DNA of 64,000 bases from the IMG/VR virus record IMGVR_UViG_3300033149_003774. The stretch is one strand, 5' to 3'. The translations under genes and the position numbers were made by a program. The notes beneath the pieces were generated by a model that had not been told where the DNA came from, searched no databases, and was given only the letters and a program-made list of their open reading frames with translations. The number at the start of each line of letters is the position of its first letter. Position 1 is the stretch's first letter. Positions 2,350 through 39,900 of this stretch are shown here, in pieces. The stretch is from an uncultured virus (IMG/VR IMGVR_UViG_3300033149_003774) (Duplodnaviria > Heunggongvirae > Uroviricota > Caudoviricetes).

Positions 2350-2555
2350 TGGAAAAAGTGAAGAGCAAAAGAATGTTAACCAAGAAACAAATGAGAAGAA
2401 AGCTAAGAGAGGAATATAAGAAAAATGTGGGAGGTGCGGTGCAGTCAAGTGGTCTCGAAAATGCTATAGCGTGTGGAATCGTCATTACCATTACTTGTGT
2501 GGCGTTCATATCCATCTTTCTGCTTATGCTTCTGATAGGGGTAGTGTTGATATAG
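2349..2555 (+). CDS. small membrane protein
   Basis: ATG overlapping the ATPase stop; basic N-terminus and long C-terminal hydrophobic helix. Confidence 0.55.
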   Translation: MEKVKSKRMLTKKQMRRKLREEYKKNVGGAVQSSGLENAIACGIVITITCVAFISIFLLMLLIGVVLI

Positions 2556-2566
2556 GAGGGAGGGAA

Positions 2567-3034
2567 TTGAGGAAAGCCATTATTGGTAACGCGACCGATG
2601 AGTTCACACCCATCACAGAAACAGCCGCAAAAAAACTTATCAGAAGATTGCTTGAAAAAAATGATATTTTAATATCTGGTGGTTGTCATCTGGGCGGCGT
2701 GGACATCTGGGCAGAAGAATATGCAGATAAGATAGGAGCTAAGAAGATAATCCATTATCCTAAAGTTCATCGATGGAGTGGAGGTTATCGAGAGCGGAAC
2801 TTAAAGATTGCAAAAGATGCTGATATTGTCTATGTAATAGTTGTGTCGGAGTATCCTCCAAAGTATGGAGGGAGGAGATTTAGATTCTGTTATCACTGTG
2901 ACACAACAAATCACGTTAAGTCTGGGGCATGTTGGACTGCTTGGAAGGCGATTGCTATGGGTAAGAAGGCTGTTTGGTTCATCATTCAGCCAGACGGTTC
3001 TCTAAAAAAAGAGGTGCCGTTCGTTGGTTCATAA
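2567..3034 (+). CDS. SLOG-superfamily (DprA/YspA-like) nucleotide-binding protein
   Basis: ISGGCHLGGVDIWAEEYA and YRERNLKIAKDAD motifs; TTG start after GGAGG. Confidence 0.7.
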   Translation: MRKAIIGNATDEFTPITETAAKKLIRRLLEKNDILISGGCHLGGVDIWAEEYADKIGAKKIIHYPKVHRWSGGYRERNLKIAKDADIVYVIVVSEYPPKYGGRRFRFCYHCDTTNHVKSGACWTAWKAIAMGKKAVWFIIQPDGSLKKEVPFVGS

Positions 3035-3795: not shown

Positions 3796-4602
3796 ATGTG
3801 TAACATGTATCCAAGAATTGAAGAGCAAATTAAAGTAATATCCGCGATTAGAAAGAAGTTAAATATTGAACAGAATGGAAGTCTGGTTTATTTGACAATA
3901 TCTGGTTCTCATCTCTATGGGTTTCCTTCGGAGAACTCCGATGTGGATTATAGAGGCGCATTTTTAACAGGAGAAGAAAACCTGCTAGGATTGAGGGGGA
4001 AGAGGGATGTTGTTGAATTAAACAAGCCTGCTGATATCGTAGTGTTTGAATTAAAAAAAGAATTGAGTCTTGCATTAAAGTCAAATTGTAATATCATAGA
4101 ACACATTAACGCATTACCCATCTATAGAACGGTAGAGTATCTCAAAATGAAACGATTAGTAAATAATGCTCTAGGAAAAAGAGGACTTTATAATTCTTAT
4201 AGAGGAATGGCATTATTCAATTATAGAAAATTCATATTGCGAAATAGAAGAATCTATAAGAAATACTTGTATGTTTTTAGGGGATTAATGGCGGGGATTT
4301 ATGTTCTCGAAACTGGCAAAATAGAACCCAACTTATTAAAATTAAATAAATACTTTAAGATAAAGGAACTTGACGAACTCATCAAATTAAAAATCGAGGG
4401 CGTTGAGGACGGGGTGGTTAGGGAGTCCATCGACTCTGGTAAATTGGATGAATTAATAATAATGCTTTTTGAAAGGATAGATAGGGCTTATATTAAGTCA
4501 AAAATTCCAGAGATTCCCAACGATGAAGAAAAAAGAGCAATAGATAATTGGTTAATTAATCTAAGATTGGAGAGAATCAAAAAACATCTAGCGGAACATT
4601 AA
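3796..4602 (+). CDS. DNA polymerase beta-superfamily nucleotidyltransferase (YcgL/RlaP-like)
   Basis: SGSHLYGFPSENSDVDYRG (GS...DxD signature) and KKYLYVFR helix. Confidence 0.8.
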   Translation: MCNMYPRIEEQIKVISAIRKKLNIEQNGSLVYLTISGSHLYGFPSENSDVDYRGAFLTGEENLLGLRGKRDVVELNKPADIVVFELKKELSLALKSNCNIIEHINALPIYRTVEYLKMKRLVNNALGKRGLYNSYRGMALFNYRKFILRNRRIYKKYLYVFRGLMAGIYVLETGKIEPNLLKLNKYFKIKELDELIKLKIEGVEDGVVRESIDSGKLDELIIMLFERIDRAYIKSKIPEIPNDEEKRAIDNWLINLRLERIKKHLAEH

Positions 4603-4820
4603 AACAAAAATACCCCCCCACCATTTAAACCACCACTATCTTTTTTTAAAAAAAATCAAAAAACCATTCATATAAAACTATCCCTTTCATTTTTGTTTTA
4701 AAATAAAGAAAAATATATATTAAAATTATTATTTTTTGATTTCAATAATAAATCATAATAGTAAATTAATAATATGGATGAACATTTTAAGAATAATTCA
4801 GGAAAAATTTGATTCATTTT

Positions 4821-4849
4821 TCATATATGTATAAATCTTTCTACTTACT
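4821..4849. repeat. 29-bp imperfect direct repeat, copy 1 (promoter-like on the minus strand)
   Basis: tcatatatgtataaatctttctacttact, 27/29 identical to 11684-11712. Confidence 0.8.
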
Positions 4850-4926
4850 CTTCTCTAAAACTAAACCGAAGTTAGCTAATTCAAGCTACTGTTAGTTAAC
4901 TTTGGACTTTAAGAAAATTCGGGAAA

Positions 4927-5079
4927 TAAAGACGGGGCGACGTTGATCCAACCCATCACCCAGATTTAGCTAACTCTCGACTTTAGTTTTTTTCCTTAAT
5001 TTTTTAGCGGATGAGTTGGAGTGGTGGGGAACGAATCACCCGCACCTTAATCTCTGGTGTGGACGATGCCCCGTCTTTA
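4927..5079. repeat. long inverted repeat / stem-loop
   Basis: taaagacggggc (4927-4938) is the exact reverse complement of gccccgtcttta (5068-5079); inner cccatcac/gtggtggg pairing. Confidence 0.6.
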
Positions 5080-5192
5080 CACCCTCGTTACAATTTTCAC
5101 CCTTCCCTTCCATCACCCCCAAACTTTACATTTTCATGTTAAGTTTCGGCTGTTTTAAGGTTTTCCACGGGCAATATTTAAGTGTTTTGTTA

Positions 5193-5208
5193 AAGAAGGG
5201 TTTATAAG
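5193..5208 (+). promoter_or_regulatory. archaeal-type promoter (purine-rich BRE + TTTATAAG) for the Ubl gene
   Basis: aagaagggtttataag upstream of a leader with a gcc-GAAA-ggc hairpin and GGTGA RBS. Confidence 0.5.
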
Positions 5209-5260
5209 CTCAGGCGGGGAGGGGGTATTGCCGAAAGGCGTGTAGAAAAGGGTGAAAAAC

Positions 5261-5464
5261 ATGAAAGTAACCCTGATATCTGCCGACGGGGACGCGCGAC
5301 GGATCGAGGTCGAGGACGGCTTCACCATCGCGGAGGTCTTCGAGGCGGCAGATAAATATCTCGGCGGAGGTCGCGTGAGCCTCAACGGGGAACCCGCAGA
5401 TGCGGATACACCTGTTGAGGAAGGCGACGTTGTAGCCGAGGCGAAGACCGCGGAGGGGGGTTAA
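5261..5464 (+). CDS. ubiquitin-like (beta-grasp, ThiS/MoaD/SAMP-like) protein
   Basis: 67 aa; MKVTLI...IEVEDGFTIAEV...SLNGE...TPVEEGDVV pattern; C-terminal Gly-Gly immediately before the stop. Confidence 0.85.
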   Translation: MKVTLISADGDARRIEVEDGFTIAEVFEAADKYLGGGRVSLNGEPADADTPVEEGDVVAEAKTAEGG

Positions 5465-5478
5465 CACCCCTTTTTTTC
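5455..5478 (+). terminator. putative terminator after the Ubl gene
   Basis: gggg-ttaaca-cccc hairpin followed by a T7 tract. Confidence 0.45.
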
Positions 5479-5545
5479 CTCCATTTTTTATGATAAAGGG
5501 GAGTGGTGGAATATAAAGATATTGTTCAAATAAGAGGGGGAAAAC

Positions 5546-5749
5546 ATGAAAAAAGAAAACATAAATTTTAGGACTTTTGAGGCGTTGGTCGTGATCGACG
5601 GCGAATACACCGTAAAAGTGAAAGCCAAAACAACTGGAGAAGCATTAGATAAAATTTTCAATCTTCCAATATTTGAACAACTGCGCACAGCAACGGATGC
5701 AGATGTAAACATAGACGTTATGGACATCTGGGAAGTGGAAGAGAGATGA
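5546..5749 (+). CDS. small hypothetical protein
   Basis: 67-aa ORF with RBS; stop overlaps the next start (ATGA). Confidence 0.6.
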   Translation: MKKENINFRTFEALVVIDGEYTVKVKAKTTGEALDKIFNLPIFEQLRTATDADVNIDVMDIWEVEER

Positions 5750-7041
5750 TAGCTATAGATCAGAACGAATATCCTAGTGGCTTCGGAGATGTTTTTAAAA
5801 GATACCTTTACAATTATGATTATCTCCATACTTACGATAACTACAGGATTGTGAACCCTGATGATGCAATTGAAGAAATGAATGACGAAACCGATGATTT
5901 TATTATATATTCACAGTCCGTACCCTCTGGTTCTACCGATCTCTCATGGAGAAGGGTAGAATCTATTATGCTGGATGGAGTGAACATAATAAAAGAGGGA
6001 GAAAAACAGTTAGTTTTGTGTTCTCCACAATCCGTCGAGGGAGCAGTTATAATAACAGATGATGAGGGATTCTACATCGGTTGCAGAAAAAATAATGTAT
6101 TGCTCATCTCGATGGAATTATCAGATCTGACTATTGTGGGTCTGGAGAAGATATTAGAAACTGCGGGACTGAGGGGACTTTCAGTTGAGGAAATGTTCAT
6201 AACAACTCTCAGAGAGATAACATCAAGACACGCCAATATGAACGTTCAGGCAATAAAGGAAAAAATCCAAAAAATAGATTCACATATGAATGTGGCATTT
6301 TCAAAGTATGTGCAGTATATGAAAGAAAAATCAGATCTTGAAGCCATGATATCTGGTCTTGGGGAGTATAACGCACTATTTTCCTCAAAATTGGAACAAC
6401 AATTAAAAAGATTATACAGATCACCGAAAATAGATAGCGTGGAAATCAGCGATGGCGAAATAAAGGTTTTAACAAAACCCCTTTACTGGGGAATATGGAA
6501 CATAGGCCAATATAATGTAGTGTATAATGTGGAATGTTCGGAACCGATGATCTATCAATTAAGCGCGCCACCGTCTAGGGAGGTGATGCTGAATGCCACT
6601 AATTCTCGTGTTAGGAGAAGCTACGAACACAGTCACATCTTGGGCGGGATAGGGTGTTGGGGAAATTGGCGTGAGATGGTGCGCAGTTTTTGGAAGCTAG
6701 ATATGCTTACTGGTTTTAATTATGCCATACAATATATTCAAAGTTACTCACTTGAGGGGGGACCACATCAACACGCAGAAAAGTTCTTGGCGGGTCTTGG
6801 TTATATTCATGATGCAGAAAGATTGAGGGAAAATGGATGGAGAATAACACAGGTGAGTAACGGAATAGTTGAAATAAATCGCATGAAAAGAACAAATGAA
6901 GAACTCAGGGAGATGGGATTTACGGCGGAGGTTGAGATGGACCCAGAAAAATACAAAGAAGAATATGAGAGGAATAGGGGAATAAGGAGAATGATGAGAG
7001 ACATCAACATCGATTACATAGATTTAACTCAGGTAGAATGA
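5746..7041 (+). CDS. coiled-coil plus prokaryotic E2-like (UBC-fold) protein
   Basis: central coiled coil, then beta-strands and HSHILGGIGCWG resembling the HPH/HPN...C E2 active site; lies between Ubl and E1 genes. Confidence 0.65.
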   Translation: MIAIDQNEYPSGFGDVFKRYLYNYDYLHTYDNYRIVNPDDAIEEMNDETDDFIIYSQSVPSGSTDLSWRRVESIMLDGVNIIKEGEKQLVLCSPQSVEGAVIITDDEGFYIGCRKNNVLLISMELSDLTIVGLEKILETAGLRGLSVEEMFITTLREITSRHANMNVQAIKEKIQKIDSHMNVAFSKYVQYMKEKSDLEAMISGLGEYNALFSSKLEQQLKRLYRSPKIDSVEISDGEIKVLTKPLYWGIWNIGQYNVVYNVECSEPMIYQLSAPPSREVMLNATNSRVRRSYEHSHILGGIGCWGNWREMVRSFWKLDMLTGFNYAIQYIQSYSLEGGPHQHAEKFLAGLGYIHDAERLRENGWRITQVSNGIVEINRMKRTNEELREMGFTAEVEMDPEKYKEEYERNRGIRRMMRDINIDYIDLTQVE

Positions 7042-7054
7042 GGGGGTAGAAGAG

Positions 7055-7747
7055 ATGAGTGATGTTGTATTTGAAACTTACAGGCGACAGATGGATGTAA
7101 TCGATCCACGTGACATACCACCAATAACTATTATAGGTGCTGGTGCAAGCGGTAGTTGCATAGGCATAGTTGCGGCTAAAATGGGTTGTCAGAACATCAC
7201 CATTTACGATGGTGATGATGTTGAATTGCACAACATACCAAACCAATACTATCCACCAGAAAGCATTATGATGAATAAATCCGAAGCTCTGAGAAGGGAA
7301 ATACTCAGATTTACACCAGACGATATAAAACCATTTGTGTCTGCACACAACATCTTCTGGTCTGAGAGGGAGATGATAACCACGCCATACGTTTTTGTGT
7401 GCGTTGATAGTATGGATATGAGGCGGAGAATATTCAACAGACTAAGGAGAAACAATAATGTCAGGTGGCTAATAGATACGAGGATGGGGGCAGAATATTA
7501 CGAGGTCCACACTGTGAATATGAATGATGACGAGGAGAAAAAACTATACGAAGAGGACCTGAGACTTGAGCCGAGAGATGCACCATGTACAGCAAGAAGT
7601 GTAATATATACGGTTATGATGATGGCGTCGAGAGCGGTATATAGCTTTAAACGATTGGTGATGAACCAAAGTGTTCCACGGATATATACAGAGGATCTTG
7701 CACAACCATTATTACCACCGTATAGAGCATGGAGGGAGGAAGAATGA
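7055..7747 (+). CDS. E1-like ThiF/MoeB-family activating enzyme
   Basis: IIGAGASGS, YDGDDVELHNIPNQ, CVDS, IDTRMG, candidate catalytic Cys in DAPCT. Confidence 0.9.
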   Translation: MSDVVFETYRRQMDVIDPRDIPPITIIGAGASGSCIGIVAAKMGCQNITIYDGDDVELHNIPNQYYPPESIMMNKSEALRREILRFTPDDIKPFVSAHNIFWSEREMITTPYVFVCVDSMDMRRRIFNRLRRNNNVRWLIDTRMGAEYYEVHTVNMNDDEEKKLYEEDLRLEPRDAPCTARSVIYTVMMMASRAVYSFKRLVMNQSVPRIYTEDLAQPLLPPYRAWREEE

Positions 7748-7983
7748 AATTTTACAAGCTAAGATGTGAGGAATGTGGTAGAATATTTCACATCGTCACA
7801 CCAGACGACAAACAACCAGAACAAAAAATCTGTATGGATTGTATAATGGAACGCTCCAAAAAAAACATACTGCGGTTTTCATTAGGAGTGGAGGAGGGGG
7901 AAGAAGAACTCACAACAATAAAGTTATTTATGGGTTTCAGAAACGATCCATTTCAAGAAATAAAAAGATTAGGAGAGATCTAA
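7744..7983 (+). CDS. small zinc-ribbon protein
   Basis: CEECG...CMDC; translationally coupled to E1. Confidence 0.65.
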   Translation: MKFYKLRCEECGRIFHIVTPDDKQPEQKICMDCIMERSKKNILRFSLGVEEGEEELTTIKLFMGFRNDPFQEIKRLGEI

Positions 7984-7984
7984 G

Positions 7985-9241
7985 ATGGAGTGGGGTTGGG
8001 ACGGCTGGTATAATCTCGGTTTCTACAGTCAAGATTATCTCAACACAAAAACCACAATTGAATCAACGAGTTTGAAGGAGATCACAAAAGAGGATATGAT
8101 AAAAAATACAAATGAGATGATCAAGAAATCAATAAAAGAAAACGTGATATTTGTTGAACCGCCGGTTATGATGAAGTTCTACCACATGATGGCTTTAGCT
8201 GGTTCTGTGGAAATATACGGTAAACTACTAACTCGTGTGGAAGGAGGATATATAGTTGTAAAGGATATCCTTATACCGTATCAAGCTGTCAGGAGTGCGC
8301 ATTTTCAGAGTTATGATGATCAGATGGCTAAGTGGTTGTATGAACTTGCATTTAAAAACAACGATCCAGAATCGGGGGAGAGAAGACCGATTGAGGAATT
8401 GAACGCAATAACAAGTAGCATACATGGGCATTTTCACAGTCACAACAGTCTTCATCAAAACGGTAAACCCACACCGAGCGCAACGGACACAACAGATGTT
8501 CTTGAACACAGGGAAGGCAAGGACTACTGGATCGAAATAATAGGAACTTTTGGCGGATTCAGCGGAAGGATCGCAACAACAACACCAGTAAGATCTCTGG
8601 TGTCTGCTGAAGTTCAGTTGAAGTGGTGGAGTGGAATAGAAAAAACCATCGAAGAAGCACTAGGAAAAGTATTCATCGAGGAAATCACATACAAAAAAAC
8701 ATACAAAAAAAACAACACACAAAAAAACAAGAAGAAAGCCAACAAAAACAAACGGGATGCTAAAATAGAAGAAATACTGGACAAGATAATCAGCGGAGAA
8801 AAAGATATTGAGAGGGTGGCTAAGGGTGTTAAGAACGAAGAGATGGGAGGTTTCATCACAGTTGAAGTTGATGAAAAAAATCCATTATATCTATCTACTG
8901 ACATACTTCCAGTAAATGTTCAAGAAACTATATGGGAATTTTATAAAGGCTGTTTAAAAGAGGGAGAGAAGATCATGGCGGATGTGTGGGGGTTCCCTGC
9001 GGTCGATTATCAAATTCACGATGGATATGGCTATGTAGAAACACTATTGTCACGACTACAAAAGAAGTTTCCAGAAGCCTATGCCGAGTATAAGGCGACG
9101 TTAGCAAGGTTTAACCTAGACGATGATCTGAATAGCATAAACATAGATGGAACGTGGGAACCGACACCGAGAACGTTTAGAGAGCAAGAAAACAACACAG
9201 AAAAAACAGGAAATAAAAAGGAGAAAATGGGAGGAAAATAA
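7985..9241 (+). CDS. JAB/MPN+ (JAMM) metallopeptidase with C-terminal extension
   Basis: VEIYG glutamate, then HFHSH...PSATD (HxH-xn-S-xx-D JAMM motif). Confidence 0.85.
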   Translation: MEWGWDGWYNLGFYSQDYLNTKTTIESTSLKEITKEDMIKNTNEMIKKSIKENVIFVEPPVMMKFYHMMALAGSVEIYGKLLTRVEGGYIVVKDILIPYQAVRSAHFQSYDDQMAKWLYELAFKNNDPESGERRPIEELNAITSSIHGHFHSHNSLHQNGKPTPSATDTTDVLEHREGKDYWIEIIGTFGGFSGRIATTTPVRSLVSAEVQLKWWSGIEKTIEEALGKVFIEEITYKKTYKKNNTQKNKKKANKNKRDAKIEEILDKIISGEKDIERVAKGVKNEEMGGFITVEVDEKNPLYLSTDILPVNVQETIWEFYKGCLKEGEKIMADVWGFPAVDYQIHDGYGYVETLLSRLQKKFPEAYAEYKATLARFNLDDDLNSINIDGTWEPTPRTFREQENNTEKTGNKKEKMGGK

Positions 9242-9243
9242 AG

Positions 9244-9681
9244 ATGAGGAGATTACCTCACCTTTCCATAAGTGAACTCGATCAACTGATAGACGAATAC
9301 ACCCTGCATCACGACGAAACATATTTCATTTATCAAAGATGGAGAAAGGGTTATCTCGTAGAGGGCGAAGAACTATTACAGTTGAACGTGACGAGAGAAC
9401 CAGTATACAGATCGTGGATACAAACTAGGAAGAGAATAGGCTATGCAGAAAGAATAGTCAAAAAGAGAAAACACTATTATGTTCTCGGTTTTGATAGGTT
9501 CACAAAAAAAGAAAAGGAGTGGCGGGTAAAGGAACCATGTATGTTACTAGAAGATCGTCTGTTTTTGGGGGGAGGATATACCATAACTGTCCAACCAAAA
9601 CCAGATTGTGCATGGTGTAAAAACTCATGTAAACGAAGTGAACCATGTGCATTTTATACCTACAAGAGAAGGGATGGTTAA
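9244..9681 (+). CDS. hypothetical protein with C-terminal Cx2Cx3CKx4CxFY motif
   Basis: CAWCKNSCKRSEPCAFY. Confidence 0.7.
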   Translation: MRRLPHLSISELDQLIDEYTLHHDETYFIYQRWRKGYLVEGEELLQLNVTREPVYRSWIQTRKRIGYAERIVKKRKHYYVLGFDRFTKKEKEWRVKEPCMLLEDRLFLGGGYTITVQPKPDCAWCKNSCKRSEPCAFYTYKRRDG

Positions 9682-9683
9682 AA

Positions 9684-10079
9684 ATGATTCCGCTACATGA
9701 AGAGAATAGTCCATTCGTGAGGGTAATAAAGGAAAGTCTCACAAGGGATGAAGTGATCAGTTGTTTGAATTTGGCGGTAGAACAAGGAGGACAAGTGTAT
9801 AGTAAAAGAGAAGGTAGATATAGAGATTTGGGTAAAGCCCGAAAAGTAGAAACGTATCGCGGAAATCCTGCGCTACGAACCACAAAAATGGGTTTCTGGT
9901 CTTTTGAACAGGGATATCTGATCGAAGATGATGGAACAATTTATCTGCGCGGGAGAAAAAACAGTTGGAGAGTTGAACTGCCAACATCTTCTGGTGGTGA
10001 TTGTGCATTATGCATACACCGATGCAAGATGGAAAAGAGATGTAAATTCTATAAGCCAATTTGGGGGGAAGAAATATGA
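9684..10079 (+). CDS. hypothetical protein with C-terminal Cx2Cx3CKx4CxFY motif
   Basis: CALCIHRCKMEKRCKFY. Confidence 0.7.
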   Translation: MIPLHEENSPFVRVIKESLTRDEVISCLNLAVEQGGQVYSKREGRYRDLGKARKVETYRGNPALRTTKMGFWSFEQGYLIEDDGTIYLRGRKNSWRVELPTSSGGDCALCIHRCKMEKRCKFYKPIWGEEI

Positions 10080-10423
10080 ACTTTCCACGAGATGATAGGA
10101 TAGTGGGTAGGCGTCCTGTAGGAATCGGCATAGGAAAAGGAGGAAGGTATGATGGAAGACGAATAGATGAGGGTGCATTATTCGTCTTTTTTAATCTTGC
10201 GTCCGATTCATCCAGTTCGATGTTGTGTTGGTCCCCTGTATGGGAGGGGAGATACTCAACGTGCTGGTGGGTTCCGAGAAACTATTTTACACACATAAAG
10301 GAAATTGGGGGACCAGGAGAACTAGAGTCCACATTAGAAAAGATGGAGTGTCTTCTTTGTAAGAACTCGTGTAAGCGCGATGTAAAATGTGCCTTTTATG
10401 AACCAATAATAAAGGAGGATTGA
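10076..10423 (+). CDS. hypothetical protein with C-terminal Cx2Cx3CKx4CxFY motif
   Basis: CLLCKNSCKRDVKCAFY. Confidence 0.7.
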   Translation: MNFPRDDRIVGRRPVGIGIGKGGRYDGRRIDEGALFVFFNLASDSSSSMLCWSPVWEGRYSTCWWVPRNYFTHIKEIGGPGELESTLEKMECLLCKNSCKRDVKCAFYEPIIKED

Positions 10424-11449: not shown

Positions 11450-13070
11450 ACAGAAAAAATGTTTTATGAAATAACCCCCCTACCCCTTTTTTCATTCTTC
11501 TAAAAAATAAAAGAGGTGGTTCATATTTTAAAAACATCACCAAAATAGGTAAATTATTGTGATTGGTTTACCCCAGAATTCTCCTACTTTTTATTAGTAT
11601 TTTTAGAAATATTATTTTGAGATTTTATTCCTAAAATACTATAAATATCTAATGGTTAAAAAATGAAAAAAAGAGTATAATAATCATATATGTATAATTC
11701 CTTCTACTTACTTTTTTTGATAACTAAAACTTACCCGACTGTAGTTTATTATTGAAGATGAATATTGTAGTTGAATTGTGTATTTGATTTATGATGTTGG
11801 TTGTGTAATTATATATTTGATTTATGATCATAAACGGCGAATTGTGAAAATGATCATTAAAGATGGATAAATGAGTAGTTATATTTTTATTACTTTTAAC
11901 GTTTATTGAATTAATATTTAAGTGTTTATCGGTCCGTAAACCGCCGCTCACGACCATTTTTAATACGATAATACGGCGGTATGGTGTAATATAAGCATAT
12001 CGGCGTTATGGATAAACGTAAATCGCCTTCAATTCCGTAAAATAAAGCCTAAAAACGGCTTTTTTTTGAAGACAATAATAGATCATAATACCCGCGATAT
12101 TTCGTATTATCACTAACGATATTAAGACCTAAAACAAGCTCAAAAAATGCCTCACTATATCCATAATCTTCAATTTTAACGTTTCAAATATTTTTTATTC
12201 GTAATACTCATATTATTATATTCACGTTATTACGCGCGGACAGACTTTATGTCCAACTACATCCGCGTTTTCCGCCGAAAGTAAATTAACATTTTTGATA
12301 CAATTCAACGCCCTATCAAAAATCGACGAGCCGCGTTTTTAACATAAAAATGTTTATTCAATCTTCATTAAAGGCTGAACTTTTCACTTTATTTTTTTCA
12401 CAAATAGTTTACACCGCGCGGTCGATTTTTCCATATTAAAATTATAGAAAAATAGCTAAAATTAACATTTTTGTATTTCCCGCCCAACGCGTTTAAGGAA
12501 TATATCAATCTGGCGGTAAAAACATAGATGAGTTTAACATAAATGTGTTAAAGCATAAAACCAATACCGCAATAATTCGATAAAAAAACCATAAAAACAT
12601 AACGGATCGTATTGTTTTATATTTCACCGTCGAATTTTATCGAAAACATCAAATAACGTGAATATTATTGATCTAAACCATACATCCATATCATATTTCA
12701 CCGCAATAACGTGAAAAATACAATTGGAGGGAACAATCATAATTTTTATTATTTAGTGAAGGATTGCAACACTTTCAAATATTTTTAAATTTGGTTTTTA
12801 ATTTTTTTGTAGTTGAAGCTGAAAACGCCGTCAATTTAAACATTTTTCGTTAAAAGGCTTTTTTATCGATTTATTAAATTTAGGTAGCGCGGAACTTAGG
12901 GAAAAAAAAATATTTTTTCCGCGTTTGGCGCGCGTCCGCGGCTGAGACCCTTTAAACTATTCTCTATTTATATTATGATGTTTGATTTATGAAGTTGAAT
13001 TGTAAAAAGAATAAAAAAACGGATGGAGGTCCGCGGACCCCTAAAATCCGCGGGTATATAGTATGTGATG
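11450..13070. other. long AT-rich non-coding region (candidate terminus, origin or control region)
   Basis: about 1.6 kb with no credible ORF; repeated aaattaacatttttg; many CGCG motifs. Confidence 0.55.
11684..11712. repeat. 29-bp imperfect direct repeat, copy 2
   Basis: tcatatatgtataattccttctacttact, 27/29 identical to 4821-4849. Confidence 0.8.
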
Positions 13071-13074
13071 ACCC

Positions 13075-13269
13075 ATGAGGTCCGCCACCGAAAACGCGGA
13101 TGAAGTAAAAGATCAGCGTGCGTTTTTTACCTCAAATGAGGCGCGCGTAAAAGACTGCATAAGACTAAACTCAGGGATGAGTTGCCTTATGCTTAGTAGA
13201 AATATACCTTATGTGTGCCGCGGATGTCCGCGCGCACAAAAGATGTTAAAAGGTGAGGTGAAGATATAG
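13075..13269 (+). CDS. small Cys-rich hypothetical protein
   Basis: C...C...CRGCP; first ORF of a tightly packed cluster. Confidence 0.45.
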   Translation: MRSATENADEVKDQRAFFTSNEARVKDCIRLNSGMSCLMLSRNIPYVCRGCPRAQKMLKGEVKI

Positions 13270-17334: not shown

Positions 17335-17760
17335 CATACTTAATGAATATATATTTTTATATTAAAACACTTAAGGAGTATGCAATTACATCATACTATA
17401 CCTTAAGGGATGTATCTATATTTAAGGATTTAAGGATATAATTTTTACTTAAGGGATGTATTCTTATATTAAATATACTTAAATGATGTACTCTTATATT
17501 TAATACCTTAAGGAATATGCTTATTTAGTTATTTACATACTTAAGGGTAATATTCTTATATTAAAAACATTTAAGGGATGTATCTATATTTACTTAATGG
17601 ATGAATGTGTTAAGGGTAAATGGATAGTTATTTATTTAAGGATATAGTTAAGGGATAGTGATAATTAATAAGGTTAAGGGATGTATCTATATTTAAAATA
17701 CTTAAGGGTAATATCTCTTTCCACACTAATACTTAAGGGTAGTATCTCCTTCCACACTAT
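17335..17760. repeat. degenerate tandem repeat array, consensus about ACTTAAGGGATGTATCTATATTT
   Basis: roughly 15 TTAAGG-cored units, many about 30 bp apart; ttaagggatgtatctatattt occurs three times. Confidence 0.75.
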
Positions 17761-17784
17761 TCTTTCATTAATTTAAGAGTCTCA

Positions 17785-18062
17785 TATGGGAATAATATTT
17801 AGTTATTTGATTTATGAACATAGGAATAATTAATTAGTATGAATATAGAATAATAATTAATTATTTGAACTGTAGGAATATTTAGTTATTTAATTTATGA
17901 TCTGTAGGAATAAATAATAAACATAAACTATGAGAATAATTAAATTAATGATCTGTGGGAATAAATAATTAATATGTGGCTGGGGGAATATTGGATTATT
18001 GAATATGATTATTATAGATGAATAGTAGGATTATTTAAACATCATAAACATGGGAATAACAT
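17785..18062. repeat. second degenerate repeat array with GGAATAA/AGAATAA core
   Basis: about nine copies in very AT-rich DNA. Confidence 0.55.
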
Positions 18063-25101: not shown

Positions 25102-25623
25102 TCATAAAAAGAGTTTTTTCCATTCTTCCTCCTTATACTTGAGCCAAGAGTCAAGGTGGGAGATAACCGTCCGTTTATCTTTTTCATAAACCCAAACCTC
25201 TTTAGCTTTCTTTAATAGCCATAGCCAAAATCCATACCAATCAATATTTTTTCCAAGGAGTTCTCCGTCCAATTCTTGGAATGCCTTAACCCACTCAGGA
25301 TGTTCAAAGGTTTCTGGACGCCTTTCTGAGATCATCCTATATGCTCTATTTAATGAGACATTATATTTCAAATGAAAATAAATAGCGGCTAGGAAGGGGG
25401 AACGATCAATCCCCCCCAAGCAGTGGAGTAGAATCCGATGTTTCTGTGAAGCTATGATGATGAGATTTGCCACCTCTCGAAGTATTCGCATAGTTGCGCT
25501 TTTTACTCCCCGATAGAATGGTCTCACATCGATCACCAAATCAATTTTTTCCTTTTTGAGAAGCTCTTCATTTTTTGAGTCGAGGAGGTTTCCAACCGCC
25601 ACACTTTCATCTATCCAATTCAT
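25102..25623 (-). CDS. dual-specificity protein phosphatase
   Basis: HCLGGIDRSP (HCx5R) active site. Confidence 0.9.
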   Translation of the reverse strand: MNWIDESVAVGNLLDSKNEELLKKEKIDLVIDVRPFYRGVKSATMRILREVANLIIIASQKHRILLHCLGGIDRSPFLAAIYFHLKYNVSLNRAYRMISERRPETFEHPEWVKAFQELDGELLGKNIDWYGFWLWLLKKAKEVWVYEKDKRTVISHLDSWLKYKEEEWKKLFL

Positions 25624-25990
25624 CCTTATTCCCCAAATTATGTTCATTAACCTTACAAACTTTGTATAACCAACCGAACTGCGGAAAATTTCCCCCATTT
25701 AGTCTTTTTATTGCATCTACCCACTCATCAATTGTTTTAAAACCACTCCACTCAACATAGGGTATCAGGGGAGAAAAATTCGGGAACCCCACTAATGAAA
25801 AAACCGACCAACCCTTCAAAAGAGTGATTTTAACATCACATATTTTCTTTCCCCCCCTTCTATCAGTAGCCCAATCCCTCCGCGGTTTTTCATAGTCTGA
25901 ATTTTTTCGCAGGTTTTTTCTGAATGTGTAAACTAATCCCTTCTCAAGAAGTTGATGGCGAGCGTTTGGGTCGGAAAATATGATCACCAT
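25607..25990 (-). CDS. ASCH/PUA-like domain protein
   Basis: GLVYTFR and SGFKTIDEW motifs. Confidence 0.55.
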   Translation of the reverse strand: MVIIFSDPNARHQLLEKGLVYTFRKNLRKNSDYEKPRRDWATDRRGGKKICDVKITLLKGWSVFSLVGFPNFSPLIPYVEWSGFKTIDEWVDAIKRLNGGNFPQFGWLYKVCKVNEHNLGNKDELDR

Positions 25991-32855: not shown

Positions 32856-33845
32856 TTATTTCACCTCATTCACATAACGAAATCGTCCCCTTCTCCCCAA
32901 CATTCCAGACATCTTATTGAGAAAGTCTGCGACACCATTCCCGATAGCGCATGGAGAAGGGGAGGGAACTGGGGGACCATTATGAATCAACCAGAAATCA
33001 TATGGATAAAATGGATACTTTACTGGAAGGTAAAATAACCCCCCATCCCCTATCTCGCTACCCCAGCTATTCATATTCACAAAATATTCCTCCCCATCAA
33101 TCACCTTCCATCCAATGATGGCAGAGCTGTGACCGCCCAAGAGTTTATCATTTTCTTTTGGCATGGGTACAATTCCATCGTCGTAAGCCTCAGTATAACT
33201 TTGATATACCTGATAGGAGGAAACTAATGGAATCTTTCCTTGGGAACCATCTGGCATTTTGTATGGAAGTTCATGCGTCAGACCATATATTGCGGCTTTT
33301 ATGTCGTTTGGATTTGGATTGATATTCCAATAGGAATTGATTGCGTATTGTTTCGCCCTCTCCTCAGCCTCCTTCGTATATGTTATTCCATCCCACGGTT
33401 TTTTTGTATCTGTTGGAACGTCTTTTTCGAGAGCGGCTCCCTTATGCTTCATCGCCTTCATCAATCCTAAATTGGTGGACCCCTCAACATCTGGTGGAAT
33501 GTTGGCGTATTCTCTGGACCAATGATAGAGCCAACCAGCAGATAAGTCAATGATGACATATTTCAATAGTTCTGGTTGATTTGTTCTTTTTGCGTAGAGC
33601 TTCAAGAGGGTGCTAGAAATTGAGTCAACCTGATCTCCACACCACCCGCAACAACTCCCCACATCTCCCTGATCTGGCCACGGATCTGTTTTCGCATACT
33701 TCAAGAGTTCCTTATAATATTCCTTTGGAAGTTCTACAACCTCCTTTGGGGAAGCCTGTAAAACTCTATAGTGGCGGTAATCCCACGGTGAGGGAAATGC
33801 ACCAAGTCTATCTTTGAGGAATTTTACTCCTTTTCTTCGTACCAT
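32856..33845 (-). CDS. papain-like (C1) cysteine peptidase
   Basis: DQGDVGSCCGW, GGHS, NSWG...GDGG. Confidence 0.9.
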   Translation of the reverse strand: MVRRKGVKFLKDRLGAFPSPWDYRHYRVLQASPKEVVELPKEYYKELLKYAKTDPWPDQGDVGSCCGWCGDQVDSISSTLLKLYAKRTNQPELLKYVIIDLSAGWLYHWSREYANIPPDVEGSTNLGLMKAMKHKGAALEKDVPTDTKKPWDGITYTKEAEERAKQYAINSYWNINPNPNDIKAAIYGLTHELPYKMPDGSQGKIPLVSSYQVYQSYTEAYDDGIVPMPKENDKLLGGHSSAIIGWKVIDGEEYFVNMNSWGSEIGDGGLFYLPVKYPFYPYDFWLIHNGPPVPSPSPCAIGNGVADFLNKMSGMLGRRGRFRYVNEVK

Positions 33846-34281: not shown

Positions 34282-36282
34282 CTAAATCACCGCATATCTA
34301 CCCGTTTCTGGAGAATATACATCTGTACTTAGAGCATCGCTTCTTAAAAGTTTTTTCAATTCCTTCCTATCCATAAGACCGCTTACCGCCTCAGCAAGTT
34401 CATCAAAACTCAATCCAGTTCTTGGGAATTTTTCTAGTTCAGCAAGTATTGCTTGTTTCTTCTTTTCTTGTGTCAGCGGTTTTCCAGTTTCTATTATACC
34501 TATATCTATCTTTCCAGAACTTGGGTCATATCCCGCCGCTTCCAAACTACCCCTCAACAACTCTATAGCCAGTTCAGCATCTTCTTCATCAGCAATGGAT
34601 TTTAGAGCCATTCTCGCACTAGCTTCAGTCAATCGACGCAGACCCTCCCCCTGTCGTGCTGTAATGGGTATTGGGTTCTCTCCTATACCCCCAGACAATT
34701 TTCTCATTTCGATGTAGAAGTCAACTATTTTCTTTAGTGCCTCTTGGCTTATTTTCGGTTTTATTGTTTTAGAATATAATATGTATTTTTTCAGTAGTTT
34801 ATAATCCATCATCTTTTTTTCCTCGGCACTAAAATCAACATTAAGTATTTTTTCTATTAATTCACGATCCTTTTTCTCGTCTGGTTGATCTTTTATGATG
34901 AAGATGAGATCGAACCTTGAGAGGATTGTCGGAGGGAGTGAAATATTCTCTGTAAGAAATTTATATGGATCATATCTACCACCAGAAGGATTTGCGGCGG
35001 CTATGACTCCAGTTCGCGCATTTAAGGTCATATGTTTGTCAGCTTTATGGATGCTCACCGTTCCAGTAGACATCGCTTCATGTATTTTTGTTCTGTCCTT
35101 ATCATCCATTTTCTCAAGTTCATCAATAGCACACAAACCCCTATCCGCGAGAACCAACGGTCCAGCTTCCAATCTCCATCCATTCTGATCTTGTATTGCC
35201 GCCGCCGTAAGACCTACACCACTTGCTCCCCTTGCAACGGTATAGATGCACTTTGGCGCGGCGTTCGTCGCCGCAAGCAACATTCTAGTTTTTGCCATAG
35301 AAGGATCTCCAACCAAAAGAACGTTAATAGAACCTCTGTGTTTTATATCGCGTTTTTTATGTTCAACACCACCAAATATCGCTAAGGCAAGACCATATTT
35401 TTCCATTCTGTGTCCATGAATAGAAGGAAATATTGAGTCCACTATTATTTCCTTTATTCTTGGATTTGAAGACCAATACACTAATTCTTCTTTTTCCTCC
35501 TCAGACAACTTCTCATCTATGATGTTCTTGTTCAAAACTTCTATATTATTTGCTTCCAAGAACCAATCGAAGATCCGATCCCTTCCTCCCCGCCTCGGTA
35601 CGACAAAAAGAGAACACACAATGCGTACTAAATCGCCAGGTTTACATATATCAATGAGATGTTTTCCTATTAATTTTACCTTTATGATTCTCGGTACAAC
35701 TCCCATTTCTACTTCTTGTGGGTTCTCCTGTAACCATATTTCTTGATAATCATCCCATTCAGATTTATTTTCTTCTAATATGAATCCTCTTTTGTTTCCA
35801 CAGATACATTTCATTGGTTTTATTAATTCATTTGAGTTTTGATAAACAAAAAGATCCTCTTCGCATTTTGGACAATGGAAAAACGCCTTTGTCAATATTG
35901 AACGGGGAGAAGAACTACTCGTTACAACACCAGTAACAGTCATTAGAGTATTAATGTCGCTAGATGAAAGTTCTCTCACTTTTTTGTTGTTTTCGACGTT
36001 TTTCAGCCACACTCTGATCTTTTTTTCTGTTTTTTTACCCCCTCGTTTTTCAATTTCATTATTAGTTTTTGTTGTGATGAACTCGTCTATATTTCCCCTT
36101 CCGTGAAAAAAACGCGCGTAGTCCTCTTGAACTTTTTTTCCTGCTTCCTCACTCAAATCATCGAAATCAAGTAAAAAAACATTATGATCTTTCTCTAATA
36201 TTTTTTCAAAGCGTTCTCTGTATTTGTCTGTTTTTAATAATGCATCAAACTCATCCAAAAAAGTAGCGTCCAAACCACACAA
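34282..36282 (-). CDS. mcm: MCM replicative helicase
   Basis: Zn motif CPKC...C-C, GDPSMAKT, IDELEKM, AAANP, SRFD, ITARQ. Confidence 0.95.
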   Translation of the reverse strand: MCGLDATFLDEFDALLKTDKYRERFEKILEKDHNVFLLDFDDLSEEAGKKVQEDYARFFHGRGNIDEFITTKTNNEIEKRGGKKTEKKIRVWLKNVENNKKVRELSSSDINTLMTVTGVVTSSSSPRSILTKAFFHCPKCEEDLFVYQNSNELIKPMKCICGNKRGFILEENKSEWDDYQEIWLQENPQEVEMGVVPRIIKVKLIGKHLIDICKPGDLVRIVCSLFVVPRRGGRDRIFDWFLEANNIEVLNKNIIDEKLSEEEKEELVYWSSNPRIKEIIVDSIFPSIHGHRMEKYGLALAIFGGVEHKKRDIKHRGSINVLLVGDPSMAKTRMLLAATNAAPKCIYTVARGASGVGLTAAAIQDQNGWRLEAGPLVLADRGLCAIDELEKMDDKDRTKIHEAMSTGTVSIHKADKHMTLNARTGVIAAANPSGGRYDPYKFLTENISLPPTILSRFDLIFIIKDQPDEKKDRELIEKILNVDFSAEEKKMMDYKLLKKYILYSKTIKPKISQEALKKIVDFYIEMRKLSGGIGENPIPITARQGEGLRRLTEASARMALKSIADEEDAELAIELLRGSLEAAGYDPSSGKIDIGIIETGKPLTQEKKKQAILAELEKFPRTGLSFDELAEAVSGLMDRKELKKLLRSDALSTDVYSPETGRYAVI

Positions 36283-36900: not shown

Positions 36901-39900
36901 TTACACCGCCCCTTTATGTGCCTTTCTAAACTTCTCCATCTTCTCTTTCATACGAGCCTTCCTCTTCTCATTCTTTCTTTGATTTCGCAACTTCTGCTCC
37001 TCAAACCATGCTTCTTCTTCTTCTTTCGATTCAAACTCAGGTAGGGGATCTTCAAGTATGTCCTTATCAGCATCGCCCATTCTCACTGCCTTTACGATCC
37101 ATGAAAACTTGACATTACTTGTTCCGCCCATCTTTTCCTTAACTTCAAATCCATTAAATTCCTTTCTGGAAACATATAATCCGTTACAATCATCCTCTTC
37201 TTGAAGAACAACTGCATAATCGAGATCTTCCATTAGTGAACAAAACTCTTCGCTAAACTCAACAAATGTTACTCCTTTTGTTAAGCTACTAACTCCCCAG
37301 TCTTCTACTGTGACTTTTGGACCTTCCACACATGTGAATATAATGTGCTTTTCGGGGTTGTGTAATGGATGACGGAACGCGGCATTTTTGTTATCAGCAT
37401 AGAAATACCCCCATTTAACCGTACTCGTTCCCAAGTACCCCGTTCCTGTTCCTTTCAAAGGTTTCACATATGTGGAGAAAACATAATTTGAATGAGTCAT
37501 ATACCAATACCGATCTGACTCTCCAATATATCCATAGTCAGAAGAAGCTGGTAAGAGAGCCCAGTCACTAAGCGTTGGGAAGAATTTTACTGCTGGTGTA
37601 TCACGTGTTGTTCCAGAAGCCTGCTTGAATGTCATCAGTTTATATGATGATGTTCCCGCGTAAATATCACCATTATTAGCCATATAGATATCTGTGGGAT
37701 AGAAAGTATCAGCATAGACTCTCTGGAACGGAGTGGCAGACGATCCAATGTCCTGTGTGGCTCCAATTGGTATCATGCCCGATCCATAGAATATTGTCCA
37801 TCCAGTAGCGTCTAGGACAATATCATCTCCTGCTATGAGAATAATATCATCAGTATCAGCATTAAGAACTACATCTGCTCCACCATAGACGAGGCTAGTA
37901 TTGCCCGCAGGAGCATAGATAATGGTATCCTTTCCTGATGTGGCTGCCAACGCCACACCAGAATAGCCACTAGATGCTAGATCTTTCACATATCCCTGTA
38001 GAACAGCATTGCTATCTTGAATGAGAAGGTATGCACCCCTAATAGTTATTCCATTCGCATCTAAAATAACATTTCCTCCACCAGCCTTTGCTTTTCCACT
38101 GGAGGCTAAGAGATAAAATTGCGCTTCATCTGAGTTATTATAACCATAGATACCATTCGTGTCGAACTCTACTCTTTGACCAGAAGATGCGGTTCTGAAC
38201 TTCTTTGCTTCAATCCACTCACTCGCTGTAATATGTTTTGAAAGAATGGCATAGGCTCCAATTACACCAGCCCCAATCGTGGGTGTATAGGAACCGAACA
38301 ATATTATTGTTGGTGCTTCTGAGGAAGCACTATTGATGTCAACAATGCCAAATAATCCCTTTCCAGAACCAACTGCATCTGTATATGTTTGACTCCATTG
38401 CAGATCATAATTACCACCAGTTTTTTGTGATTTATCCCAGTATATATACCACGTTCCATCGGCAACGTCCGTATTTTCGCCATAGTTGATTTGATCTGTT
38501 GTCCCATCCGCAAATTTTATATCGGCATTTGTGGCATTCTCTGCCCCAGGTGCGCCCCACTTGATATGATTAAAATCTGTGGGGGGATCATCGTTCACAT
38601 CATCCCACACAACACTCAGGTTGGACTGCCAAGGACGCAGTTCAATCTTAAGATCTGCCGCCTCGGCTCTACTTGGAGCCGCAGAACCCTCTGTAGCAGA
38701 ATAATCTGAAACATTACCCGACCAATCAACCGCCTTAATTCTATAATAATATGTTGTTCCATAGTTCACATTTCCGTCCAATAGATAATTTGTATATGTC
38801 CTTGCATATTCTGATGAGGCGGGGCTAGATGTTCCCCTATACACTATATAATAATTCAAGTCTTTTTCAGTATTCGCATCCCATATAACTCGTACAGCAC
38901 TCAACTCAGAGGAAGCACTGACATTAGTTGGTGCGGAAGGGGGACCAGGTGGATCATCAACGATACCATGTGGAACAATTCCGATCCAATCACAGTAAAA
39001 ATCCGTGATACCAGATGCAAAATTGTTTGCCCTAAATTCAACATCTGAATATGTGGCATCGAGGGTGAATGAGAAAGCAATCACTTCCCATGTATCAGAT
39101 GCATTAAATTCATTTGGTTTCATGGTACGGGATGCGAACGCGCTTCCCTTTGTGGCACTATACACGTCCAGAGTAACCAAGTTGCTTGAACTTGAATTAT
39201 CCGTTACTTTACAAAGAAAGAGAACTCTGTAGTCGCCTCTTGTTAATGTTACAGCTGGTCCCCACCATATGACACCGGATTGTGCAGAAGCCATTTTTAC
39301 GATCTTTTCGTTAGAGGCATTAGAATCATCCTCAATTGTGGCATCTGGATCAAGAATCATATGTTCTGCTTCATAAAATAGTGAAAAACCAGTTTGATCC
39401 GTAATGTAGTTTGGTCCAACATCTGAGTATGTTGCCCCCCGTTCACCTCTTATTTGGTTTATTATTGAGGAAATAACATCTTCCACATACTTTTTTTTCA
39501 GAGTACAACCGACAACTACCGTTTCCCCGTCGGCTTTATACGTTCTTTTTATTGTTTTTACTTTGTATGAACCAGAGAGTCCAGTAACGGAGTCCGTTAG
39601 CGTAATCGTATCCCCCACGCCCCACGTACCTGTACTGTATGTATCGTCCACCGTTACCAAGACTTCTTCTGGTGAACTATATTCTTCCAAGATCGCTTCA
39701 GCTCTCAGTCTGCACGCCTCGGCAGTTTCAAGTGTCTTGTCAACGATTACGGATTCGTAGTCTCCAGAACCAACCCAACCGCTAGAGTTCCTATCCTGTT
39801 CATCACCGGTTCCCGCACCGAGAACCAATACCGCATCAACTTTCTGGCGATTGTCTGTCTTGCTTGAACTCTGAATGATGGTATCTATATCATTTTGATA

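Follow-up and report, generated by a model that had tools for sequence, protein, structure and literature searches.

A cysteine module shared by three adjacent small proteins of a tailed, probably archaeal, virus

Three adjacent genes of an uncultured tailed virus encode small proteins that all close with the same 17-residue pattern, C-x2-C-x3-C-K-x4-C-x-F-Y, followed by a tail of 7-8 residues, and that show no sequence similarity to one another outside it. In the reading we favour, to which we tentatively assign a probability of about 0.45, the three are old tandem paralogues in which only a compact Cys4 metal site, probably for zinc, has evolved slowly. The DNA analysed (the window) is a 64-kb stretch (39% GC) that forms part of an 85.9-kb metagenomic contig.

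Three genes and one module

The three genes lie head to tail on the + strand. ORF1 (9244..9681) encodes a protein of 145 amino acids (pI 9.4) with the module at residues 122-138, ORF2 (9684..10079) one of 131 amino acids (pI 9.0) with the module at residues 107-123 and ORF3 (10076..10423) one of 115 amino acids (pI 7.6) with the module at residues 92-108; the tails that follow comprise 7, 8 and 7 residues, respectively. The starts at 9244, 9684 and 10076 are the likely ones, since they correspond to public gene calls of 145, 131 and 115 amino acids and leave the genes either 2 nt apart or joined by an ATGA overlap: ORF1 starts 2 nt past the stop codon of a gene encoding a JAB-like protein, ORF2 starts 2 nt past the stop codon of ORF1, and the start of ORF3 overlaps the stop of ORF2 (4 nt). 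Alternative starts at 9645 and 10061 are disfavoured. GGAGG is found 9 nt upstream of the ORF1 ATG, and a purine-rich Shine–Dalgarno-like stretch is present 5' of every one of the three starts. The protein bodies contain one or two extra cysteines each outside the module, and none of the three sequences has an N-terminal hydrophobic signal or signal peptide. All three are probably real proteins that would be produced from a common transcript.

The module is encoded at 9607..9657 (CAWCKNSCKRSEPCAFY), 10002..10052 (CALCIHRCKMEKRCKFY) and 10349..10399 (CLLCKNSCKRDVKCAFY), in each case on the + strand, and these peptides are the ones written out in the initial annotation. A six-frame regular expression and a DNA pattern search, which agree with one another, find C..C...CK....C.FY exactly three times in the window, all on the + strand, each in a frame of its own and 7-8 codons ahead of a stop. 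The motif appeared in none of 100 dinucleotide-preserving shuffles of the window (0/100). That three adjacent ORFs end in an identically spaced cysteine module, as had been claimed, is thus correct and is not a matter of chance. When the module is compared copy with copy, 4-5 of 18 codons are synonymous yet different and nucleotide identity is 52-69%. The use of different synonymous codons at conserved residues indicates selection at the protein level: the repeat is old and has been kept as protein, and recent DNA duplication or an artefact is excluded.

BLASTP comparison of ORF1-3 aligns the module alone (E 4e-4, 1e-6 and 4e-6), and once it has been removed, Smith–Waterman scores are at the level of shuffled sequences (z 0.55, -1.19 and -0.58, with 1000 shuffles each), bearing out the earlier description of the N-terminal parts as dissimilar in sequence. 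With similarity at the level of chance, common descent of the bodies is a presumption. The position of the module 7-8 residues from the stop, the protein lengths of 115-145 amino acids and the head-to-tail arrangement favour whole-gene duplication over three acquisitions of a tag, and we prefer paralogues to the attachment of one tag to three domains of separate origin. A single gene would have been duplicated in tandem long ago to give rise to ORF1-3, after which the bodies would have drifted past recognition by sequence, with selection holding the C-terminal 17 residues in place.

Rarity of the module and comparison with known cysteine motifs

An exhaustive scan of 1.84 billion representative proteins, using a profile of the last 40 residues whose reach is limited (40 columns, built from three sequences), returned seven proteins at E up to 0.001: the three queries (P0001, P0002 and P0003), one further protein (P0006) and three repeat proteins (P0004, P0005 and P0007). 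Two of the repeat proteins are PAN/apple-like (P0005 and P0007) and the other contains a tandem repeat (P0004); none of the three was accepted as a relative, since each score adds up 4-14 weak stretches. The sole outside member, P0006, is a 101 amino acid ENA metagenome protein that ends in CVLCKHSCKKEKRCAFYEEVGI and has the same layout as ORF1-3. It is a singleton, encoded on two contigs of which neither exceeds 677 bp. The N-terminal parts of P0006 and ORF3 can be aligned collinearly (z 2.72; among 2000 shuffles, a fraction of 0.023 scored as high, without correction for the six comparisons made) and, to judge by sequence, P0006 may be an orthologue of ORF3.

When 5.8 billion proteins were searched by word index, neither ORF1 by itself nor the alignment of all three proteins retrieved anything beyond the window's own proteins. 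ORF1-3 have no match in Pfam, PHROG, PADLOC or NCBIfam, and no fitting Pfam family appears at E up to 10 with either the four proteins or the three module segments. Comparison of the four members with the 887 ORFs of the window (all-against-all BLASTP and phmmer) revealed no further paralogue, and the best score for the ORF1 tail in the ESM Atlas (0.81) is at noise level. Among nucleotide collections, the strict DNA motif matched 70 loci in viral_contigs, and the motif with N/H at the sixth position matched 35 loci in metagenome_contigs and 21 in genome_contigs, all of them off-frame, stop-containing or low-complexity; the N/H constraint may have missed variants in the last two scans, and the window's own contig is absent from all three collections. 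One GC-rich locus drawn by P0006 (L071) is spurious and lacks the module. We found no published description of the signature, which is also absent from Pfam: the module is a very rare, newly seen variant of the familiar short Cys4 metal knuckle.

Seven residues of the module are invariant, these being the four cysteines (within 14 residues), the lysine beside the third cysteine and the Phe-Tyr after the fourth. The lysine is present in 4/4 members, as is the spacing C-x2-C-x3-C-x5-C; the distance between module and C-terminus is 5-8 residues across the four, and module plus tail is basic in three of them (pI 8.5-9.2). Small Cys4 metal sites need ligands, charge compensation and a miniature hydrophobic core, and on sequence grounds metal binding by the module is plausible. 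The invariant lysine and the shared tag would also be expected of a docking or acceptor module.

The retroviral CCHC knuckle has the form C-x2-C-x4-H-x4-C. Like this and other short zinc knuckles, and like structural Zn(Cys)4 sites in small proteins of viruses or archaea, the module has four ligands in 14 residues, a CxxC start and basic and aromatic flanks, and is found in a small protein. It differs from the knuckle, however, in being CCCC rather than CCHC, in its spacing (2-3-5 rather than 2-4-4) and in its invariant K and F-Y, and given cysteine as third ligand, this spacing and the lack of Pfam matches even at E up to 10, membership of zf-CCHC was rejected. The likeness could nevertheless be functional, in which case ORF1-3 would be small basic proteins that bind DNA or RNA and regulate the expression of viral or host genes, equipped with a zinc-knuckle-like nucleic-acid binder and unrelated to the Ubl genes that lie upstream. 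Such a role would suit the pI values of ORF1 and ORF2 (9.4 and 9.0), the basic module and tail of three of the four members, the 14-residue ligand span shared with the retroviral knuckle, the hydrophobic or aromatic residue after the first cysteine and aromatics after the last, and the frequent CxxC proteins of the window. It is unlikely, however, in view of the differences in spacing and ligands, the near-neutral pI of ORF3 (7.6) and the lack of any match to zf-CCHC or another nucleic-acid-binding family at E up to 10.

Four cysteines of this kind might also hold an iron-sulfur cluster, within or between chains, in proteins acting as redox or oxygen sensors or as cluster carriers in an anaerobic host. 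The window encodes an anaerobic ribonucleotide reductase (phrog_487, 9.5e-71), which makes it probable that the host is anaerobic. Furthermore, 4Fe-4S motifs can have closely spaced cysteines with basic residues nearby, as is the case here, and three homologues of the JAB-like protein (P0011, P0015 and P0016) have Cys-rich inserts such as C-x2-C-x5-C-x3-C. Those inserts score negatively with a local profile of the module, however, and were rejected as its kin. The spacing found in 4/4 members is not that of ferredoxin (CxxCxxCxxxCP), Wbl (C-xn-C-x2-C-x5-C) or SPASM (C-x2-C-x5-C-x3-C) and is unlike radical SAM signatures, and no cluster-assembly gene was seen nearby with Pfam or PHROG. We consider a cluster improbable.

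PAN/apple domains are extracellular, about 70-90 residues in length, and have a C-x3-C-x5-C core in mid-domain that pairs with distant cysteines to either side of it. The module resembles this core (as in factor XI and TgMIC4) locally, in the pattern C-x3-C-x5-C-x-aromatic-aromatic; it lies 5-8 residues from the C-terminus, however, and with E values of 0.23-0.36, which are not significant, PAN/apple membership was rejected. A related proposal is that the cysteines form disulfides, in a PAN/apple-like arrangement or a defensin-like knot, or belong to the core of a modified peptide, the proteins being secreted, virion-borne or processed. The profile does weakly draw PAN/apple repeats of the form C-x3-C-x5-C-x-F-[FY] (P0005 and P0007), a PDB profile search lists the apple domains of factor XI and MIC4 at E 0.23 and 0.36, and there are weak sub-threshold matches to PSI, Big defensin and Stig1. 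All of these matches, however, are either below significance or summed over many repeats, the motif stands at the extreme C-terminus without the remainder of a PAN domain, signal peptides are lacking and no radical SAM or other maturase was found among the 20 neighbours scanned. This last proposal is very improbable.

The viral gene array and the Ubl-related genes upstream

A large terminase (phrog_2, 6.6e-18), a major capsid protein (Pfam Phage_capsid_4, 3.2e-7) and other gene content identify the window as that of a tailed virus, and the presence of an MCM helicase (Pfam MCM 3.7e-76, with OB and lid domains) points to a host that is probably archaeal. The window also encodes many DNA methyltransferases, and CxxC proteins are frequent in it; neither Rfam nor tRNA scans found anything there. 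From 1489 to about 16200, almost every plausible gene is on the + strand, and together these form a single tight array of many genes unrelated to one another.

Within this array and upstream of ORF1 is a group of genes, all on the + strand, that together plausibly form a Ubl/E2-like/E1/JAB-like cassette, which would be unusual for a virus. The first (5252..5464) encodes a ThiS/MoaD-like Ubl of 70 amino acids that ends in GG directly before the stop (Pfam ThiS 4.3e-4, just under the cut-off). After a 67 amino acid ORF comes a gene (5746..7041) for a 431 amino acid protein with a possible E2-like domain at about residues 209-352. This protein has no family match in Pfam, PHROG, PADLOC or NCBIfam; the E2-like assignment is a structural lead from its ESM Atlas model, whose similarity to a UQ_con cluster (TM 0.57 by the row, 121 aligned residues) is below the bar of the tool. 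An H-x-H...G-C-W stretch, spotted by eye, presumably recalls the E2 motif. The next gene (7055..7747) encodes an E1-like ThiF-family adenylyltransferase of 230 amino acids (Pfam ThiF 2.6e-15; PADLOC E1-E2 models) that also matches NCBIfam 6A-MBL cap2_3 and PRTRC ThiF below their cut-offs, and is followed by one (7729..7983) for an 84 amino acid CxxC...CxxC zinc-ribbon protein (Pfam Zn_ribbon_8 1.9e-4, below the cut-off; NCBIfam FmdB zinc ribbon 0.0019).

The last gene before ORF1 (7985..9241) encodes a probable JAB/MPN+ peptidase of 418 amino acids with a C-terminal domain of no assigned family. Nine metagenomic homologues share 34-62% identity with it, and in the alignment of the ten, residues E76, H151, S152, H153, S165 and D168 are invariant, a pattern that we take to be the JAB/MPN+ active site. 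Family matches are weak, with Pfam JAB (0.0074) and Prok-JAB (0.048) each found in one of the ten members, and residues 137-183 match a PHROG tail protein (E 0.0012). Of the earlier statement that the three proteins are encoded directly after a JAB gene, the adjacency therefore stands as given (2 nt), with the JAB identity itself probable on the strength of the invariant residues and weak family matches. No relatives of the JAB-like protein, of its alignment or of the E2-like protein were found in viral_contigs (IMG/VR), where a DNA pattern for the JAB catalytic motif also gave 0 hits, and with the terminase, E1, JAB-like or E2-like protein as query, tblastn gave no match among GenBank phages.

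With such neighbours, the module might dock on the E2-like, E1 or JAB-like protein and leave the bodies to pick targets, in the manner of an E3, or ORF1-3 might be substrates modified at the invariant lysine. The 2-nt spacing after the JAB-like gene and the presence in the same array of a GG-ending Ubl, an E2-like candidate and an E1 speak for this possibility, as do the constancy of the module alongside bodies that are dissimilar in sequence and the invariance of the lysine in 4/4 members. A functional link would be in keeping with the tight packing after the JAB-like gene; adjacency is weak evidence, however, where so many unrelated viral genes follow one another on one strand. As to co-occurrence, nine homologues of the JAB-like protein compare with one other module protein in the exhaustive scan (a weak negative, given the 40-column, three-sequence profile), module and cassette are seen together at one locus (the P0006 contigs being at most 677 bp), and the local module profile finds no trace of the module inside the ten JAB-like proteins. 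In addition, all seven invariant residues are of a kind required structurally by a small Cys4 metal site.

Known adaptor families offer partial parallels. F-box and PRANC elements are helical, metal-free and about 40-50 residues long, and dock on host Skp1, whereas RING domains are about 40-60 residues long and use eight Cys/His ligands to bind two zinc ions in a cross-brace. ORF1-3 are like the poxvirus ankyrin/PRANC and F-box proteins in forming a paralogue set with a constant short C-terminal element and variable bodies; the conserved part here, however, is a 17-residue Cys motif, neither family is matched at E up to 10 (four proteins and three module segments) and membership was rejected. 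RING/U-box membership was likewise rejected, there being no zf-RING match at E up to 10 and one or two cysteines elsewhere in each protein besides the four in the module, and four ligands over 14 residues are too few for a RING cross-brace.

In bacterial operons encoding E1, E2 and JAB proteins, Iyer, Burroughs and Aravind (2006; PMC1779556) describe a Zn-finger protein as a possible E3-like adaptor, a precedent for the docking proposal in that it too is a small Cys protein whose gene, on a mobile element, has Ubl, E1, E2-like and JAB genes as neighbours. As described there, however, its signature is a different one (C-x3-C-x35-38-H-x2-C, with a treble clef as the guessed fold), there being one gene per operon and conservation across operons, whereas here there is a 17-residue motif in three paralogues at one locus. 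The Caldiarchaeum-type archaeal ubiquitin operon (PMC5654768) combines a small RING E3 with Ub, E1, E2 and a JAB/Rpn11-type peptidase, and is similar to the viral locus in placing a small (in our case putative) metal-binding protein by Ubl, E1, E2-like and JAB genes. Against the proposal, BilABCD operons, as described in PMC10557695, comprise E1, E2, DUB and Ubl and achieve conjugation without an E3 gene among the four. As regards viruses, the Nidhogg viruses of Asgard archaea have three E1-like genes according to a 2021 preprint (10.1101/2021.07.29.454249); our literature search yielded no account of a full Ubl/E1/E2/JAB set in a tailed prokaryotic virus. On balance, an E3-adaptor or substrate function, which the initial annotation had put forward with F-box proteins as the analogy, is not favoured and we think it unlikely.

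Structure models and the role of the module

AlphaFold2 models of two of the proteins are of low confidence. The mean pLDDT is 45.8 for ORF2 and 55.3 for ORF1 (from a four-sequence alignment), with residues 40-100 of the latter at 61-88, and the module is the worst-modelled part of both (about 30-44, and about 30-36 in ORF1). The two are not fully independent, as ORF2 was included in the alignment used for ORF1. Both place a run of beta-strands before a helix in the Cys module (residues 108-117 in ORF2 and 123-128 in ORF1), and in ORF1 there are seven strands before the helix. The PH-like superfold is a seven-stranded beta sandwich with a C-terminal helix as cap. In comparisons with 48,161 PDB representatives, the best match for the ORF1 model was the Dcp1 EVH1 domain (Z 5.5, rmsd 2.9 over 75 residues) and that for ORF2 had a Z of 4.9 (PP4R3A EVH1, Z 4.1), every Z being below the noise bar of the fold-search tool (Z 7-8). 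Between the two match lists, 17 of 50 listed entries are common and mostly PH-like (EVH1, RanBD, PH). Foldseek, run with the ORF1 model against the PDB, found nothing at E up to 0.001. A single shared fold, with the Cys helix as its C-terminal cap, is suggested by these models as a lead only.

Even as a lead, this bears on two of the readings considered above. Neither model contains a helix-turn-helix, which would count against a nucleic-acid-binding role. A PH-like fold would suit a binding scaffold and thus a docking function; the low-confidence models would, however, put the Cys helix within one fold rather than in an appended tag.

To return to the reading we favour, the 17 residues would hold a compact metal site, most likely Zn(Cys)4, in which a short helix carries or adjoins both the CxxC of the first two cysteines and the third cysteine, and the fourth comes after a turn. 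The invariant lysine would balance the negative charge of the thiolates, and the Phe-Tyr would pack the knuckle against a beta-rich body. The module would in this way act as a structural staple that closes each small protein, rather than as a separable docking tag, and would do so independently of the Ubl cassette. With their diverged bodies, the paralogues might then differ in the surfaces with which they bind host or viral partners.

A more specific form of the docking proposal has ORF1-3 as interchangeable specificity subunits of a viral Ubl machine, each with a small PH-like body closed by a Cys4 knuckle, through which it would dock on either the E2-like or the JAB-like protein. We regard this as decidedly unlikely. 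If correct, it would mean that the virus puts its own Ubl on three different targets, or strips host Ubl from them, and the three proteins would represent a minimal prokaryotic-virus counterpart of the F-box/PRANC adaptor sets.

Were docking on the neighbouring Ubl enzymes to be true in any form, ORF1-3 would constitute the first family of adaptors or substrates for a Ubl system carried by prokaryotic viruses, and would bear on how targets are chosen by prokaryotic Ubl systems that, in the parts of the literature consulted (PMC1779556, PMC10557695), have no evident E3 gene. If the module is a structural staple only, ORF1-3 would provide an example of viral paralogues that have lost all sequence likeness except for their metal ligands, and the known mini-domains would be joined by a Cys4 signature that is new and very rare.

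The Ubl gene set and its upstream neighbours

The genes encoding the Ubl (a ThiS/MoaD-like protein of 70 amino acids), a 67 amino acid ORF, the E2-like candidate (431 amino acids), a ThiF-type E1, a zinc ribbon protein and a JAB-like peptidase follow one another in this order in a tight single-strand run on the plus strand (window 5252–9241). The virus-borne Ubl ends in GG at its C-terminus, and searches of the ESM Atlas returned clusters resembling the E2-like candidate (scores 0.92–0.93) with 58–287 members each, for the most part viral. The Ubl gene stops at a GC-rich, terminator-like hairpin with a T-run (5452–5480), 81 nt upstream of the next ORF; transcription of the Ubl may exceed that of the enzyme genes. 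Genes for a weakly DprA-like Rossmann protein with a C-terminal CxxC (2471–3034, E 0.0091) and for an RlaP-family nucleotidyltransferase (3796–4602, 5.4e-36), both on the plus strand, are found upstream of the set.

Linkers of the JAB-like homologues

Nine metagenomic homologues of the JAB-like protein (7985–9241) were identified; none was found in IMG/VR or GenBank phages. Three of the nine (P0011, P0015 and P0016) carry Cys-rich inserts, exemplified by C-x2-C-x5-C-x3-C in P0015, in the linker that joins the JAB domain to the C-terminal domain, in place of which the linker of the window's own protein is Lys-rich. These inserts are unrelated to the Cys4 module (C-x2-C-x3-C-K-x4-C-x-F-Y) found near the C-termini of ORF1–3 (9244–10423).

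Non-coding regions, other cargo and the likely host

Two stretches, 4603–5250 (about 0.65 kb) and 11450–13075 (about 1.6 kb), yielded no convincing ORF, Rfam match or tRNA. At 17437–17963, in gene-poor surroundings, imperfect direct repeats with periods of about 30, 31, 25 and 83 nt form an AT-rich cluster that might serve as a replication origin or as some other array of binding sites.

The minus strand encodes a probable tail fibre or adhesin of 1425 amino acids (36901–41178), in which residues 146–256 form a carbohydrate-binding domain of the F5/8 type C (discoidin) family. Also on this strand are a dual-specificity phosphatase domain (25102–25698, 6.2e-10) and a papain-family peptidase domain (32856–33845, 1.3e-6), both unusual as prokaryotic-virus cargo.

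A full MCM helicase with P-loop, OB and lid domains (34282–36282, minus strand), NrdD (45911–47731) and at least five DNA methyltransferases are encoded in the window and, taken together, suggest that the virus infects an anaerobic archaeon.
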